Source: a virus
Taxonomy: Duplodnaviria; Heunggongvirae; Uroviricota; Caudoviricetes
IMG/VR virus record: IMGVR_UViG_2639763115_000001
Location: 1 to 12,696 of that record
Direction: 5' to 3' (one strand)
Length of the DNA stretch: 12,696 nucleotides
The translations under genes and the position numbers were made by a program. Shown in pieces: positions 155 through 12,239 of this stretch. The first letter of the stretch is position 1, and each line of letters opens with the position of its first letter. The notes under the pieces were generated by a model. That model searched no databases and was not told the origin of the DNA. It was given only the letters and a program-made list of their open reading frames with translations.

Positions 155-364
155 ATGGCTTTCATTCCACCAACCATCGACGATGTTAGACATTGCTCTA
201 ACGCTTTATCTGTAGACCCCGCCGAAACCGACGCTGCCCGCGCCATTGCTGAACACTACTCAAAGATATCCAATCAGGAGTACCGCATCACCCAAGACGA
301 CCTGGATGACCTCACTGACACAATCGAATATCTCATGGCCACTAACCAGCCAGACTCACAATAA
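155..364 (+). CDS. Small, highly acidic hypothetical protein (69 aa)
   Basis: ATG at 155 preceded by GTGAGG SD 7 nt upstream. 14 Asp/Glu versus 4 Arg/Lys (net about -10). No family recognised. Confidence 0.5.
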   Translation: MAFIPPTIDDVRHCSNALSVDPAETDAARAIAEHYSKISNQEYRITQDDLDDLTDTIEYLMATNQPDSQ

Positions 365-401
365 ATGCACTAATAAATCTATTATTTTCGTTGGATCCTT
401 C

Positions 402-474: not shown

Positions 475-1326
475 ATGATAAATTATGTCTACGGCGAACA
501 ACTGTACCAGGAGTTCGTCAGCTTCAGGGATCTCTTTCTAAAAAAAGCTGTTGCACGCGCCCAACACGTTGATGCCGCCAGCGACGGTCGTCCTGTACGC
601 CCGGTTGTCGTTCTGCCGTTCAAAGAAACGGACAGCATTCAGGCTGAAATTGATAAATGGACTTTAATGGCGCGGGAACTGGAACAGTACCCAGACCTCA
701 ATATCCCAAAGACTATTTTATATCCTGTGCCTAACATCCTTCGCGGTGTGCGTAAGGTTACGACCTATCAGACAGAAGCTGTAAACAGCGTCAACATGAC
801 CGCTGGCCGCATTATTCATCTGATTGATAAGGACATTCGCATCCAAAAAAGCGCGGGGTTCAATGAGCACAGTGCGAAATACATAGAGAACCTGGAAGCA
901 ACAAAAGAGCTAATGAAGCAGTACCCGGAGGATGAAAAATTCCGTATGCGCGTACACGGCTTTAGCGAAACAATGCTGCGCGTTCACTACATCTCCAGTA
1001 GTCCTAACTACAATAACGGTAAATCAGTTAGTTACCATGTGCCGCTGTGTGGCGTGTTTATCTGCGATGAAACTCTCCGTGATGGAATCATCATCAACGG
1101 TGAATTCGAGAAAGCAAAATTTAGCCTTTATGACTCCATAGAACCGATCATCTGCGACCGCTGGCCACAAGCAAAAATATATCGCCTGGCAGATATTGAA
1201 AATGTAAAAAAACAAATTGCCATCACTCGCGAAGAGAAAAAGGTTAAGTCAGCCGCATCAGTTACGCGCAGCCGTAAAACCAAGAAGGGGCAGCCAGTAA
1301 ACGACAACCCCGAAAGCGCGCAATAA
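475..1326 (+). CDS. Hypothetical protein (283 aa) with a Lys/Arg-rich C-terminal tail
   Basis: ATG at 475 with strong SD GGAGGAGG. Long clean ORF ending 3 nt before a hairpin terminator. No family recognised by eye. Confidence 0.7.
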   Translation: MINYVYGEQLYQEFVSFRDLFLKKAVARAQHVDAASDGRPVRPVVVLPFKETDSIQAEIDKWTLMARELEQYPDLNIPKTILYPVPNILRGVRKVTTYQTEAVNSVNMTAGRIIHLIDKDIRIQKSAGFNEHSAKYIENLEATKELMKQYPEDEKFRMRVHGFSETMLRVHYISSSPNYNNGKSVSYHVPLCGVFICDETLRDGIIINGEFEKAKFSLYDSIEPIICDRWPQAKIYRLADIENVKKQIAITREEKKVKSAASVTRSRKTKKGQPVNDNPESAQ

Positions 1327-1358
1327 ATTATGCCCGGCATCAACCGGGCATTCTTCCA
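1327..1358. terminator. Hairpin between convergent genes (stem ATGCCCGG/CCGGGCAT 1330-1351, 6-nt loop); probable bidirectional terminator
   Basis: 8-bp GC-rich stem read directly, with AT-rich flanks on both sides. Lies between the stop of the 283-aa gene (1324-1326) and the stop of the alternate-frame segment (1359-1361). Confidence 0.55.
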
Positions 1359-1586
1359 TTATTCAGCCGCCACCGGTTTTAACAAGCCAGCATCGAGCAG
1401 TTTACGCGTCAACCACTGCTGGCCTTTACCCGTTAATTGAGGCGTCAACCGTATCTGATAGCCATCTTCATCATCCAGCACCACTTCTTTCACCGTGAAA
1501 TAATCGACTATGACGAACGATATAAGGCGTAATGTGAGCGCCAGCTCCCGCAGCTCCACAGCCACAGCATGGACGGGAAGCCACAA
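1359..1586 (-). other. Out-of-frame 3' continuation of the 1471-2370 gene (probable true C-terminus after a frameshift)
   Basis: This frame is open for 75 codons and ends exactly at the 1330-1351 hairpin. Its translation (…[15 protein letters not shown]…KPVAAE) looks protein-like, while the tail of the 299-aa frame (…[15 protein letters not shown]…) does not. Track start is TTG. Confidence 0.3.
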
Positions 1587-2370
1587 AGTCCATGTACTCG
1601 GGCAATTTTAGCGATTGAAGTTTTGGTATTTTGAAATGCGCCATACCTGGGTCGGAGTCAACATCCACAGGGCATACTTTTGCACGCATCGGCGCGGCGC
1701 GTTCTTCCATCATTTGAACATATGCTGTAGCGCGATCGTCATACGGGCGAATATCCGCCTCTTTCAGAGGTCCGCTATCCTGCGGAGTAGCCTTCATCTT
1801 ATTTATTGATATGCGGCAGACTTCTTCCGGCATCAGGTGCATCATGTTGCGCATGAAAGCCCACCAGCACAGCTCCTGAATACTTAAATCATGGCTATTT
1901 GAAAGGCCCATTTCCTGACGGGCGACATCCAGTATCCAGTTAACGCGATTATTGTGCAGCGTTTCTTTCAGCTCATTAAAACCACGCATCCGGTAATGGT
2001 TATCGTGATGCCAGCACAACAACACCGCGCTATTGTCTCGTTCTGCGTGGACAATATGGTTGTCACACCAACTACGATCTGCGGCCTGGCATTGACCCTC
2101 TTTCCTACGCAACCACGCCACCAGCGCGTCAATTCCACCAATACGGCGAAACAGTTCATCGCTGTTAAAAAACGGCTGCAACGCCTCATTTGTTGCCATG
2201 GTTTGCTCCGTAACAACGAGGCCGTCTTCCATGTGCTCGATTAACTCACGCGGCACCGGCTCCATAATAAATTTACGGCCAGCCTCCACCAGCTTTCGGA
2301 CCTCCTGATCCACTTTGAACGTGGCGAGGCCAAGCTCTTTCTGTACAAAGGGAGTAATTACGGCTTTCAC
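1471..2370 (-). CDS. Phage protein with a Cys/His cluster (C-x2-H … C-W-H-H-x2-H), HNH-like/metal-binding; tentatively DUF968-like; apparently frameshifted near 1580
   Basis: GTG start at 2370 with AAGGTG SD 5 nt upstream. Motif [24 protein letters not shown] read from the translation. Family assignment is from memory only. Confidence 0.55.
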
Positions 2371-2397
2371 ATCACACCTTTAATCACTGATTGGGCT

Positions 2398-2577
2398 TTA
2401 TCTGCTGCCCGGCATTATCTGTTTAAGCACAACCATTTCCTGACGGCATAACACAGCAATAGCAGTCCTGGCTCCAATTTGCTTACCAACCAGGTATTGC
2501 TTTACCTCGCGGCGACTCACGCCATCAAGAAGCATCTTTAACGCTTCACGGGACAATTTGTTGTATTTGCGTGCCAT
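2398..2577 (-). CDS. Small basic hypothetical protein (59 aa) immediately downstream of doc
   Basis: Internal ATG at 2577 with GGAG SD 7 nt upstream, 5 nt after the doc stop codon. The track ORF starts at an upstream ATG (2598) that overlaps doc. Confidence 0.45.
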   Translation of the reverse strand: MARKYNKLSREALKMLLDGVSRREVKQYLVGKQIGARTAIAVLCRQEMVVLKQIMPGSR

Positions 2578-2581
2578 TAAT

Positions 2582-2962
2582 CTACTCCGCAGAACCATAC
2601 AATCTACGTAACGTGGCGGCGACAGAAGATACAGATATCTCGCCAGTCGCAGCGCCTACAGTAAGGTCTGCCAGTTCAGGTGAATCAAATACCTGCACCC
2701 CGTTACGGCGTAGAAATAGCAGCGCACTGTTTAGCGCGGTACGCTTATTGGCATCATTGAATATATGCCCTCTCGCTGTAGCCACCAGGTAGGTGGCGGA
2801 GACTTCGAAAAGGTCGGTGATCTCTTCGTAGGCAACTCTGGCCTGAACTCTCCCGATAATGGCCTCTGCCCTACCCGGATCTGACATTCCCGGCAGGCCG
2901 CCGTAGCGGCTTATATTCGCATCATGAAGCGCAATAAGTTCTTCCGGTGATATATGCCTCAT
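2582..2962 (-). CDS. doc: Doc toxin (Fic-fold kinase, death on curing), 126 aa
   Basis: Translation carries the Fic/Doc active-site motif [12 protein letters not shown] and matches P1 Doc as I remember it over its whole length. Start ATG shares one base with the phd stop (TAATG). Confidence 0.95.
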
Positions 2963-8676: not shown

Positions 8677-8706
8677 GTTTTAAAAATCAATATTTATTAG
8701 AGCAAT
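8677..8706 (-). promoter_or_regulatory. C1-repressor-operator-like site ATTGCTCTAATAAATAT (8690-8706) overlapping a putative promoter (-35 TTGCTC, 17-nt spacer, -10 TAAAAC at 8677-8682)
   Basis: 16/17 match to the P1 C1 operator consensus ATTGCTCTAATAAATTT as I recall it. Overlaps the HAD gene stop codon by 1 nt; lies upstream of the 28-aa ORF and ASCH-like gene. Confidence 0.55.
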
Positions 8707-9230: not shown

Positions 9231-9264
9231 GAAAAAAATGCTGGTGGGCGCACTCCACCAGCAT
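9231..9264 (-). terminator. Rho-independent terminator (10-bp stem ATGCTGGTGG/CCACCAGCAT, 7-nt loop, then T7 on the minus strand)
   Basis: Read directly. Lies between the 420-aa gene stop (9285) and the HAD gene start (9212), so it may act as an attenuator. Confidence 0.65.
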
Positions 9265-9284
9265 TAAAAGTGACACTGTAACTG

Positions 9285-10547
9285 TCAGCGAACGTAAATA
9301 GTGCCGCCGTTCTCTTTTTCCCATGCATCGCTACGTGCATAGCAAACATCGAGAAGTCTTCTTGCCGCTGTTTCCTCTAAACCCAATTCGACAACCAACT
9401 GCTCATGACGGCGGGTAACCACATCAAACAGGGTATGCAGCCCTTTAGCTGCCAGATCATCAATAAATTCCGGTTCGAACGGCAGCTCTGCATCTGCCAA
9501 CATAACCTCTTGCGCCCACTCGACACGGCGGACCAGTTCCGGGCGGCGGCTTTCCATCTCTTTACAGATCAATTCATGGAAGAACTCTACCCAACCTTCC
9601 GGCTGGAACTCGCGGAAAATGGCCAGCGGCTGGAAGTTTGGCATCAACCATTCGTTGATTCGGATATCAATGGCATAGCCCATGTCGCAGCAGAACTGAT
9701 AAGCAAAGTCCAGCTTAGAAACGATATAAGGACGCTCGTTATTGAACTCTTTAGGCGATGAGATCCCATAAGCCAGGAGGCGCGGGAAGAAGGAGATTTG
9801 CCCTAACGTCGGATGAAGTTTGCTTGCAGGGAAACGGCGCTCAGTAATGCCATACATTTCCTTCTTGAGCGTCGCAAATTTGGCATTCTCATTAACCAGC
9901 GCGGTAACCTCTGCTTTTTTATTAGCAAATGCCACGCGCGCTTCGCTTGCATCTTTAATAGTTTTTTTGAGCTGTTGGTTAAGATCGGCGACCTGCTTAC
10001 GCAGTTCCTGTCGCTCGCTTTTAGCTTTGTTATAGCGTTTCTCAAGGTTAAAAGGATCAAGTTTCATGATCTCTTTATATTGAGATTTTAGCGTTGAAAT
10101 CTGTGAGTTCCGCAGTTCAACCATCGCGGTCATTTCATTGAGTTTTGTTTCCAGCTCAATGCTTATACGTTCGGCATTATCAGCACGCTGGTTGGCGTCA
10201 TGCGTCGCATCGTCGATCGCGTCCTGTTGCTGGCGTTTCAAATGTTCAATTTGTAGCTGAAGCTCTTCAATTTCTTTACCCTTCAGACCGAGATCCAACT
10301 GCATATTTTCAGCTGCATCTACCAGGGAGTTATGGCTATCAGCTTCTGCGTTATAAACATCAATAAGCTGTGCGTGAAGCATCTCCGCTGACTGAACCGC
10401 ATTATCAAAAAAACGCGCTGTGAGGTCATCACAACTAACGCGGCGTTGCGCGGCCCGGATGTTCTGGATAATGGCTGGGATACCGGCATTCAGGACGTCA
10501 GGGATAGATACATTTTCGATTGATTGGTTTTGTGCTGAAGTGCTCAT
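9285..10547 (-). CDS. Hypothetical protein (420 aa): N-terminal ~230-aa coiled-coil, uncharacterised C-terminal domain
   Basis: Long ORF with ATG start. Heptad-like, charge-rich sequence (…EELQLQIEHLKRQQQDAIDDA…) from the translation. Confidence 0.7.
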   Translation of the reverse strand: MSTSAQNQSIENVSIPDVLNAGIPAIIQNIRAAQRRVSCDDLTARFFDNAVQSAEMLHAQLIDVYNAEADSHNSLVDAAENMQLDLGLKGKEIEELQLQIEHLKRQQQDAIDDATHDANQRADNAERISIELETKLNEMTAMVELRNSQISTLKSQYKEIMKLDPFNLEKRYNKAKSERQELRKQVADLNQQLKKTIKDASEARVAFANKKAEVTALVNENAKFATLKKEMYGITERRFPASKLHPTLGQISFFPRLLAYGISSPKEFNNERPYIVSKLDFAYQFCCDMGYAIDIRINEWLMPNFQPLAIFREFQPEGWVEFFHELICKEMESRRPELVRRVEWAQEVMLADAELPFEPEFIDDLAAKGLHTLFDVVTRRHEQLVVELGLEETAARRLLDVCYARSDAWEKENGGTIYVR

Positions 10548-10548
10548 T

Positions 10549-10767
10549 TCAAAGTTCCGTATTAGCTTGTGCTTCGGTCATTTTTCCTAAGTATGAAGGT
10601 GGAAGGACTACGCAATTTGTATCCAGTCCCTCACCTATGGCAGCCTGTAAAATTCTGGCTAAGGTGAGTCTCTTGTTGCGATACCTGGTGATTACATGCC
10701 TGATACCGCCGGTCGGCGTAACAAAGGCGATCAGCCAGTAGTGATATTTCCGTCGGAATGGCCACAT
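10549..10767 (-). CDS. Hypothetical small protein (72 aa), first gene after the operator/promoter
   Basis: ATG at 10767 with AAGGTG SD 6 nt upstream. Stop is 1 nt before the ATG of the 420-aa gene. Confidence 0.45.
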   Translation of the reverse strand: MWPFRRKYHYWLIAFVTPTGGIRHVITRYRNKRLTLARILQAAIGEGLDTNCVVLPPSYLGKMTEAQANTEL

Positions 10768-10781
10768 AGCGCACCTTGTAG

Positions 10782-10847
10782 ATTGCTCTAATAAAAAACG
10801 TGATGAGTGTACATCACGTTTTAAAAATATGAAATTATTAGAGCAAT
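10782..10847. promoter_or_regulatory. Pair of inverted C1-operator-like sites (10782-10798, plus orientation, 14/17; 10831-10847, minus orientation, 15/17) flanking an 11-bp-stem hairpin (10795-10822) that is a terminator for the upstream gene; putative promoter -35 TTGCTC / -10 TAAAAC on the minus strand
   Basis: Read directly. Outer 12-bp arms ATTGCTCTAATA/TATTAGAGCAAT are perfect inverted repeats. Inner stem AAAACGTGATG/CATCACGTTTT is followed by T6 on the minus strand. Confidence 0.55.
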
Positions 10848-10848
10848 A

Positions 10849-11550
10849 TTATTCTGATTCTCGCTCAAAAAATGAGCTGATAAGGGGAAGCCAATCCTCT
10901 GACACTTCGCGAGGTCGCGGTTTGCCGTGGAAAAAGATTATTCGGCAGTCTTTTGGTAATGCCCCATTCCCCCTGGAGTAACGCGCGCTCGCATATTTTG
11001 AACCAGGTTCCACAACATCGGCCTTGTAACTTACAAACCATCCTGGATACAGATCCTGAAATGCTGGTGTATCATCGCCCATAACCTTTCGTAAGAACCC
11101 CTGGTCACCCCAGCACTCAGTAGTGACACAACGAGAAATCCAACCTTCCGGATCTTGCCAGAATGAACTCCAGATATGCGCTTTTACACTATTTGGTATC
11201 CACAGGGCACCGCTACCACGATATTGTGGATGGTAAAAATCCCTAAGCATGGTGAAGCTGGTTGGTGGATTCTCAAGGATTGGGCGTATATCACCGGCAA
11301 TAACTGTGTCCAAATCCAGATAGAACAGATCATCTGTTATATCCGGTCGGAACAACTCGATTTTCGTCCACCAGCCACGGCACTTTTGCCACTGGTTGAT
11401 CAATGGGACAACTTTGACGCCAGGTACATGTAAACGCTTCAGGTCTGTCAGGCAAATAATTTCATAGCCTTTTGGCAGTTGATTAACCAGCCACTGCACA
11501 TCGGAAGCGTTATAGTCACCACCAGAGCGAAGAACTAAAGCAATCTTCAT
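10849..11550 (-). CDS. Hypothetical protein (233 aa), possibly a GT-A-type glycosyltransferase (DxD-like FYLDLDTV motif)
   Basis: ATG overlaps the ppp stop (ATGA). The functional guess rests only on the DxD-like motif and N-terminal beta-alpha start and is weak. Confidence 0.6.
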
Positions 11551-12239
11551 GCTGCACCATCACCTTTCACTTTCATCAATGTCAGGTTTCCGCAAAATAC
11601 GGCACCAGTGTCGATATAATGCTGATTCCAGAATGTCTTCGGGCTTTTCACCGGAGTGTGACCAAAGATAAAACGATCTGCGCCCGAAATTTCGCCACCA
11701 ATATCATCCATCGAATCACTGATACGCTCGCGCGCCCAGACAACGTTGAAAAGCGGCACCTCCTTACCGAATTGATATTCATTATCCGGATAGTCGGCAT
11801 GGGCTATAACGATAGTTTCTTGCCCGGTGTTCAACTCAATGATATAGGGCAGTCGTCTTACCAACTCCACCAGCGCCCTGGCTAATATTTCCTGATCAGC
11901 GTCCAGCATGAAGAACCATTGACCGCCATTCATTAGCCAATTATTCACGTTGCCATCAGGACTTAACGCATCAATCATCAGCTGCTCATGGTTGCCCATA
12001 ACCGCTCTGAACCATGGCATCTGCAATAGCTCCAAGCATTTAACATTTTCGGTGCCGCGATCGATAAGGTCGCCGACCGATATCAGTAAATCCTGCGCAG
12101 GGTCAAAATCCACACGATGGAGTTCGGACATCAGTCTGGTGTAGCAACCATGCAGATCACCAACAACCCAGATATTCCTGTATTTGGTACCGTCGATACG
12201 GTGATAAATTGTTGGTGCCATCATGTATTCTTCAGCCAT
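11547..12239 (-). CDS. ppp: Ser/Thr protein phosphatase, lambda-PPase-like metallophosphatase
   Basis: GDLHG, GDLIDRG, GNHE and later His motifs; near-collinear with lambda PPase from the IDG(T/S)[15 protein letters not shown] block onward. Start could be 12239, 12224 or 12221; the last overlaps the upstream stop as TGATG. Confidence 0.9.

Follow-up and report, generated by a model that had tools for sequence, protein, structure and literature searches.

Paired C1 operators, a predicted promoter and a putative terminator hairpin at the junction of the ppp-pmgQ and pmgR-pmgS units in a P1/P7-like phage-plasmid

The DNA analysed here, a stretch of 12,696 nucleotides referred to as the window, is part of a P1/P7-like phage-plasmid that encodes the C1 repressor itself. 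The region shares 98.8-99.3% identity with phages P7 and P1, and with hundreds of P1-like phage-plasmids, and P1 features were mapped onto the window by adding 8899 to the locus coordinate. Around the site of interest, ppp, pmgQ/hdmD and the head-completion genes pmgR/shtA and pmgS/shtB all lie on the minus strand (Table 1). The cognate repressor gene, c1, is located in the same window, and its product of 283 residues is identical to P1 C1.100 at 280 of the 283 positions.

Table 1. Positions of the features discussed in the text, in window coordinates
Feature	Position	Strand	Details and basis
ppp	11547-12239	-	ORF list; annotation of P1 and P7 homologues
pmgQ/hdmD, last gene of the upstream ppp unit	10849-11550	-	stop codon TAA 10849-10851; ORF list; P1 and P7 homologues
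C1 operator a (OpmgRa, former Op86a; P7 Op(sht[a]))	10831-10847	-	ATTGCTCTAATAATTTC; annotated protein_bind 'phage repressor C1' in P1 and P7
Predicted sigma-70 promoter PpmgR	10818-10846	-	-35 TTGCTC 10841-10846, 17-nt spacer, -10 TAAAAC 10818-10823; AF234172
Candidate alternative promoter	10806-10833	-	-35 TTCATA 10828-10833, 16-nt spacer, -10 TACACT 10806-10811 (hairpin loop); rough PWM
Hairpin, proposed intrinsic terminator of the ppp-pmgQ unit	10795-10822	-	loop 10806-10811; inner inverted repeat
C1 operator b (OpmgRb, former Op86b; P7 Op(sht[b])), inverted relative to a	10782-10798	+	ATTGCTCTAATAAAAAA; annotated in P1 and P7
Linker between operator b and the pmgR Shine-Dalgarno sequence	10778-10781		
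pmgR/shtA, first gene of the downstream unit	10549-10767	-	Shine-Dalgarno AAGGTG 10772-10777
pmgS/shtB, after pmgR	9285-10547	-	ORF list; P1 and P7 homologues
Second terminator-like hairpin	9237-9265	-	T-run 9232-9238; about 20 nt past the pmgS/shtB stop codon
C1 operator at the end of pap (P1 OpmgT counterpart, former Op88)	8690-8706	-	ATTGCTCTAATAAATAT
doc	2582-2962		
DUF968 (pdcB-like) ORF	1471-2370		
c1	475-1326		
Oc1b-like operator	375-391		upstream of c1
Oc1a-like operator	364-380		upstream of c1
Oc1c-like operator	192-208		upstream of c1

The junction between pmgQ and pmgR contains a nested palindrome of 66 bp (10782-10847), which reads ATTGCTCTAATAAAAAACGTGATGAGTGTACATCACGTTTTAAAAATATGAAATTATTAGAGCAAT. 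A repeat finder reproduces the coordinates and the extent given in the initial annotation, together with its hairpin of an 11-bp stem between two inverted operator-like 17-mers: the inner arms (10795-10805 and 10812-10822) are 11 nt long, 100% complementary and separated by a loop of 6 nt. The outer inverted arms (10782-10794 and 10835-10847) are perfect, as had been claimed, but measure 13 nt rather than the 12 bp first reported. The 91-nt region around it folds far more stably than shuffled sequences on both strands (z = -6.4 and -6.0). A search of Rfam gives no family match anywhere in the window, so that a known RNA family does not fit the hairpin.

The 17-mers at the two ends of the palindrome correspond to C1 operators. 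P1 is described as having 22 C1 operators, with ATTGCTCTAATAAATTT as their asymmetric 17-bp consensus (PMC8546580). With up to three mismatches allowed, this consensus is matched four times in the window, against 0.10 matches expected, and none of 200 shuffles reaches four. Operators a and b, with two and three mismatches, respectively, are two of these matches, and the remaining two are the operator at the end of pap and the Oc1a-like site. A position weight matrix (PWM) derived from 13 further annotated operators of P1 assigns 22.0 bits to operator a and 19.1 bits to operator b, compared with 8.5-25.7 bits for the training sites and a shuffle maximum of 18.8 bits. At the homologous position, the P1 record AF234172 lists OpmgRa, which controls pmgR and pmgS, as a 'monovalent' C1-controlled operator and describes OpmgRb in the same terms; the P7 record AF503408 places Op(sht[a]) and Op(sht[b]) at homologous coordinates and calls them monovalent as well. 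The proposal that both 17-mers are C1 operators agrees with these annotations and with matches beyond chance, and binding of C1 to both sites is predicted. Operator a starts 1 nt past the pmgQ/hdmD stop codon, and the A-rich tail of operator b is the template of the U-tract of the gene-strand hairpin.

The locus, orientation and spacing of OpmgRa, OpmgRb and PpmgR in P1, and of Op(sht[a]) and Op(sht[b]) in P7, are identical to those in the window, and the 66-mer differs from both phages at one position, in that operator a has T instead of C at its position 16. This position (10832) is C (…TTCC) in P1, in P7 and in almost all IMG/VR relatives; with the T of the window, operator a comes nearer to the consensus, and the candidate -35 of the alternative promoter (TTCATA) is improved too. 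The palindrome had been offered as a discovery, yet the operators have been catalogued since the P1 genome was annotated. Because the P1 and P7 records already carry both operators and a -35 within the outer site, the core of the finding was known. Relevance beyond P1 biology is small, since the operator pair and its promoter have stood in the P1 and P7 annotations for two decades. Within the full-text literature covered, nothing relevant on Op86/OpmgR is found.

The junction is conserved well beyond the close relatives of P1. Three diverged lineages were compared: P1/P7, the Salmonella Newport plasmid pCVMN1543 with its relatives, and the Cronobacter phage JK004 with a metagenome contig. The length of exactly 66 bp and both operator cores are kept in all three, with flanks that are approximately 68-71% identical. 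Within the P1 clade, 78 loci were sampled through PmgS, independently of the operator. Among these loci, segregating sites are found at 0 of 13 positions of the operator a core, 0 of 6 of the T-run, 0 of 6 of the hairpin loop, 1 of 11 of the operator b core (in one sequence, L041), 8 of 18 stem positions and 4 of 4 positions of the linker after operator b. This linker is hypervariable, with minor alleles in 31 of the 78 sequences, while the adjacent operator cores are near-invariant. L041 is an IMG/VR contig of the P1 clade in which operator b (element at 2201-2266) reads ATTGCTCTGATAAAAAA, with A9 changed to G, plus a G·U change in the stem; among the relatives seen, no other has an altered operator core.

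Further searches for relatives returned little additional diversity. The scan of genome contigs with PmgS yields two near-identical loci, the scan of viral contigs with the PmgS alignment yields only relatives that are 99-100% identical, and the scan of metagenomes for hairpins not of the P1 type yields one JK004-like contig, which together indicate that the diversity of the junction is limited to about three or four lineages. Matches to PmgS of approximately 20% identity in other plasmids were left out of the comparison, as their orthology is doubtful. In one further candidate, H59, the homology ends inside pmgR; this IncHI1B plasmid holds a truncated remnant of P1 and is uninformative on the junction.

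A second part of the initial annotation described the operator pair as a bivalent repressor site, and the comparison with the known bivalent operators of P1 does not support this description. In Obanab (Op72ab, 68667-68694 in P1) and Oc1ab (Op99ab, 94166-94193 in P1), two inverted 17-mers overlap at an 11-bp offset and form a 28-bp unit. As in the window, the paired 17-mers of these operators are arranged heads-out and control a sigma-70 promoter. However, operators a and b do not overlap but are offset by 49 bp, with the hairpin and the promoter core between them; the overlapping 28-bp unit is absent, and both phage records call the two sites monovalent. A related reading is that the two inverted operators nevertheless act as one cooperative or looped C1 site, in which a C1-C1 contact across the hairpin creates a tight switch. 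The heads-out orientation, which is that of the true bivalent operators, and the spacing fixed at 66 bp in three lineages are consistent with such a site. C1 reportedly mediates looping between distant Op99 sites, which also counts in its favor. Additionally, ternary complexes of Lxc, C1 and the operator have been described (PMC8546580). However, an offset of 49 bp corresponds to approximately 4.7 helical turns, which places the operators out of phase, on different faces of the helix, and much too close to each other for an unassisted loop, and the constant spacing is equally accounted for by the promoter geometry, the hairpin and the U-tract. Cooperative or looped binding of C1 at operators a and b is therefore a reading that we do not favor and regard as unlikely.

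The preferred reading, in which the two sites are separate monovalent operators, connects directly with the promoter of the downstream unit. The outer site had been said to provide the -35 of the next operon, and this is borne out by the P1 record, in which operator a holds the -35 TTGCTC of the predicted promoter PpmgR of pmgR-pmgS. The annotated hexamers match the consensus at three of six and four of six positions, respectively, and the final conserved T is absent from the -10. The weakness of these hexamers explains why a built-in promoter consensus scan called no promoter at the junction. In the relatives, the annotated -10 reads TGAAAC or TAAAGC (P1-clade variants), TAAAGC (some members of the Salmonella lineage) or TGAAGC (JK004).

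A second candidate -10 is formed by the hairpin loop, whose sequence is TACACT in members of the P1 clade and TATCAT in the remaining lineages; across 22 sequence types, T49, A50 and T54 of the alignment (TAnnnT) do not vary. Against a sigma-70 pattern of -35 and -10 hexamers spaced 16-18 bp apart, both candidate promoters at the junction (TTGCTC-17-TAAAAC and TTCATA-16-TACACT) are weak by a PWM. By this PWM, a rough one that uses consensus-base frequencies from the literature, the combination with the loop as -10 is top-scoring in the window (7.3 bits, against 4.9 bits for annotated PpmgR), in the Salmonella lineage (8.2 against 3.0-4.9 bits), in L140 (8.2 against 4.9 bits) and in JK004 (9.2 against -0.2 bits). 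The two combinations differ in geometry. With the loop as -10, the predicted start is G10799 and operator b spans about +2 to +18; with the annotated -10, the start falls within the hairpin loop and operator b spans about +13 to +29.

These observations raise the possibility that the annotated -10 TAAAAC is wrong and that the loop is the functional -10, with transcription starting at G10799, so that operator a adjoins the -35 and operator b extends over the start, which leaves the promoter sandwiched between the two. In addition to the PWM scores, the change of position 2 of the annotated -10 from A to G in the L027-type variant (in at least three distinct flanking contexts) and in JK004, together with a TAnnnT motif that stays invariant across the 78 loci, points in this direction. 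However, the scores derive from a crude matrix, the two candidates are alike in P1 itself (4.6 bits for the loop combination and 4.9 bits for annotated PpmgR), none of the -35 candidates is good, and at other P1 promoters the operator TTGCTC is the annotated -35. On balance, the conserved -10 is probably not the one annotated for PpmgR and the loop may be the real -10, and we place the full sandwiched arrangement somewhat below an even chance. The doubt about the annotated -10 is relevant to P1 engineering and to the use of C1-controlled promoters. A divergent or antisense promoter from operator b was also considered and was rejected, as inspection of the sequence reveals no plus-strand -10 at the right distance.

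The hairpin between the operators has the features of an intrinsic terminator of the ppp-pmgQ unit. The minus-strand RNA reads AAAACGUGAUG-UACACU-CAUCACGUUUU followed by UUAUU, which gives U6AUU overall (the complement of 10790-10798), and the 11-bp stem consists of a 7-bp core (CGUGAUG/CAUCACG, with four G-C pairs) and four A-U pairs. The hairpin begins 26 nt past the pmgQ stop codon, within the interval of 13-50 nt past it, and a stable stem-loop thus directly precedes a U-rich tract downstream of a stop codon. The folding energy on the gene strand is -13.0 kcal/mol, and the modest energy of the 7-bp core alone (-8.5 kcal/mol) suggests that termination may be partial. In a crude scan, the hairpin ranks fourth among the candidates that combine a hairpin with a T-run on the minus strand of the window. 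The built-in terminator scan of the window did not call it, an artefact that arises because the scan prolongs the stem into the T-run. Unlike the present analysis, the P1 and P7 records give the hairpin no terminator label, the -10 that they assign may differ from the one in use, and no terminator is annotated at the hairpin in any matching phage record.

The element resembles intrinsic terminators with an upstream A-tract, which look bidirectional: both consist of a stem-loop and a U-tract with a 5' A-tract that pairs with the first U residues. It differs from them in that only the gene-strand version is kept across the lineages. The hairpin energy on the gene strand is -13.0 kcal/mol in P1/P7, -13.6 kcal/mol in Salmonella and -13.6 kcal/mol in Cronobacter, whereas that of the antisense hairpin weakens from -13.4 kcal/mol in P1/P7 to -9.7 kcal/mol in Salmonella and -5.8 kcal/mol in Cronobacter, with loss of the T-run. 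It also differs from usual intrinsic terminators in that the DNA of the U-tract doubles as an operator tail and the hairpin overlaps the promoter core.

Changes within the stem follow the same strand preference. At pair 43-60 of the alignment, P1 has G-C where the other lineages have A-U; at pair 46-57 the situation is reversed, with A-U in P1 and G-C elsewhere. Six further stem pairs differ solely by G·U or U·G wobbles. Overall, 97.1% of the stem cells are paired (7 of 242 are unpaired and 13 are G·U), and when the partner columns are slid by one to three positions, pairing across the whole structure falls from 97.9% to 39-52%. The two compensatory pairs probably represent a single ancestral event common to four sequences, and the shuffle controls on the covariation leave the relatedness of the sequences in place. 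Among P1-clade variants, the stem changes that occur in several distinct contexts are transitions to G·U on the gene strand, and seven substitutions that disrupt the stem occur in one context each. Covariation of the strand-specific kind looked for in an intrinsic terminator is thus found, and this wobble pattern points to selection on the gene-strand RNA over a DNA palindrome, although the signal is modest and comprises few independent events. The strand-specific wobbles also disfavor a DNA palindrome for a dimeric protein as the identity of the inner repeat.

Expression data from P1vir place a boundary at the same position. The RNA-seq values (Table S1 of PMC8201110) are per-gene log fold changes from P1 rather than 3'-end maps of the element in the window. 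For the wild-type (WT) host at 10 min, the dksA host at 10 min and the change in WT from 10 to 30 min, the values are 7.39, 6.63 and +4.4 for pmgO; 6.99, 6.52 and +4.3 for pmgP; 6.95, 6.09 and +4.5 for ppp; 7.05, 6.23 and +4.6 for pmgQ; 9.02, 9.00 and +1.8 for pmgR; and 9.99, 9.09 and +1.7 for pmgS. The C1-controlled genes pmgT (+1.9) and pmgU (+2.2) exhibit a late rise like that of pmgR and pmgS (PMC8201110). A sharp boundary between expression classes therefore lies exactly between pmgQ and pmgR. The step of two to three log units from pmgQ to pmgR and pmgS at 10 min, which is observed in both hosts, indicates that a promoter at the junction is active in P1, and the failure of pmgR and pmgS to follow the approximately 24-fold late rise of pmgQ argues for little late read-through. 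Additionally, roadblocks set by CRISPRi in ppp and pmgQ are non-lethal, and pmgR is essential by deletion (PMC10695390). The non-lethal roadblocks are compatible with a separate pmgR promoter, a weak argument because knock-down of pmgR itself did not score in that study.

Taken with the sequence features and the conservation and covariation pattern, the expression boundary suggests that the hairpin is a plausible terminator and most likely ends the upstream ppp-pmgQ transcript, as the initial annotation held; as the P1 values are at gene level and do not map 3' ends, termination itself is what we infer from these three lines. An opposing reading is that the inner palindrome is not a terminator but an element that acts at the DNA level, either as a promoter spacer and -10 or as a site for a dimeric protein, and that upstream transcripts run on into pmgR. 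The invariant loop with its conserved TAnnnT suggests a role of the DNA sequence, the stem core is of modest stability, and pmgS is as abundant at 30 min (11.70) as pmgQ (11.66) (PMC8201110), all of which would fit this opposing reading. However, the natural changes that occur in more than one distinct context break the dyad symmetry and weaken the antisense hairpin but keep the gene-strand RNA energy, an invariant U6 tract directly follows the hairpin, and the time course of pmgR and pmgS is unlike that of pmgQ. Furthermore, the loop could serve as a -10 without impeding termination, and the opposing reading therefore excludes only part of the main model. The inner palindrome also bears no convincing resemblance to the -22 boxes of P1 late promoters, and a late promoter at this position was rejected on these grounds. 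We consider a purely DNA-level role of the inner palindrome improbable.

The terminator reading can be combined with the operators and the internal promoter in a model that we consider probable as a whole, in which the 66-bp element represents the known control region of the P1 family that separates the ppp-pmgQ and pmgR-pmgS units. Two asymmetric 17-bp C1 sites in heads-out orientation would flank a weak sigma-70 promoter. In the lysogen, C1 with its corepressor Lxc/Bof would occupy both sites; operator a would cover or abut the -35, and operator b would lie either at the start site or at about +13 to +29, depending on the promoter used, so that under either geometry C1 occupancy would prevent initiation and the first steps of elongation into pmgR. 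A polymerase that comes from ppp-pmgQ would transcribe the entire hairpin and terminate, whereas RNA polymerase from the internal promoter would start in or after the hairpin, and its transcript, which lacks the 5' arm of the hairpin, would escape termination. The junction would thereby insulate the early, C1-controlled pmgR-pmgS unit from the upstream unit that is boosted late. Within this model, actual termination, the choice of -10 and the role of operator b are the parts that we infer.

A more elaborate version of the model is a terminator-in-promoter cassette, in which the loop is the -10, operator b lies over the start and the DNA of the U-tract, and C1 bound at operator b both blocks initiation and acts as a roadblock directly downstream of the terminator hairpin. 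If this version were true, the C1 roadblock would raise the termination of stray upstream transcripts in lysogens, a form of repressor-assisted termination; we give this version little credence.

The simpler model, with insulation by the hairpin, also concerns the distal end of the downstream unit. A second terminator-like hairpin is located after pmgS (AATGCTGGTGG-AGTGCGC-CCACCAGCATT followed by T7, about -18 kcal/mol), and it is stronger than the hairpin before pmgR and ranks first in the crude scan. The strong hairpin after pmgS and the hairpin before pmgR indicate that pmgR-pmgS is bracketed by terminator-like structures. In the P1vir RNA-seq data, the 10-min value of pap is 1.5 log2 units below that of pmgS (PMC8201110). 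The unit, which includes the essential head-completion gene pmgR and exhibits early kinetics, thus appears to be insulated by intrinsic terminators on both sides.

Additional C1-related features are observed elsewhere in the window. The operator at the end of pap departs from the consensus at a single position, and its 24.0 bits are the highest operator score in the window. Upstream of c1, three sites resemble Oc1a, Oc1b and Oc1c. Downstream, c1 is followed directly by the DUF968 (pdcB-like) ORF and then by doc (window 1326-2962); the lpa-pacA-pacB block, which lies between c1 and pdcB in P1, is absent from the window, and no Olpa/Op94-like operator above 8 bits is present in the window. At least six natural plasmids carry the c1-pdcB junction at 100% identity, which indicates that it is a real lineage variant and not an assembly artefact.
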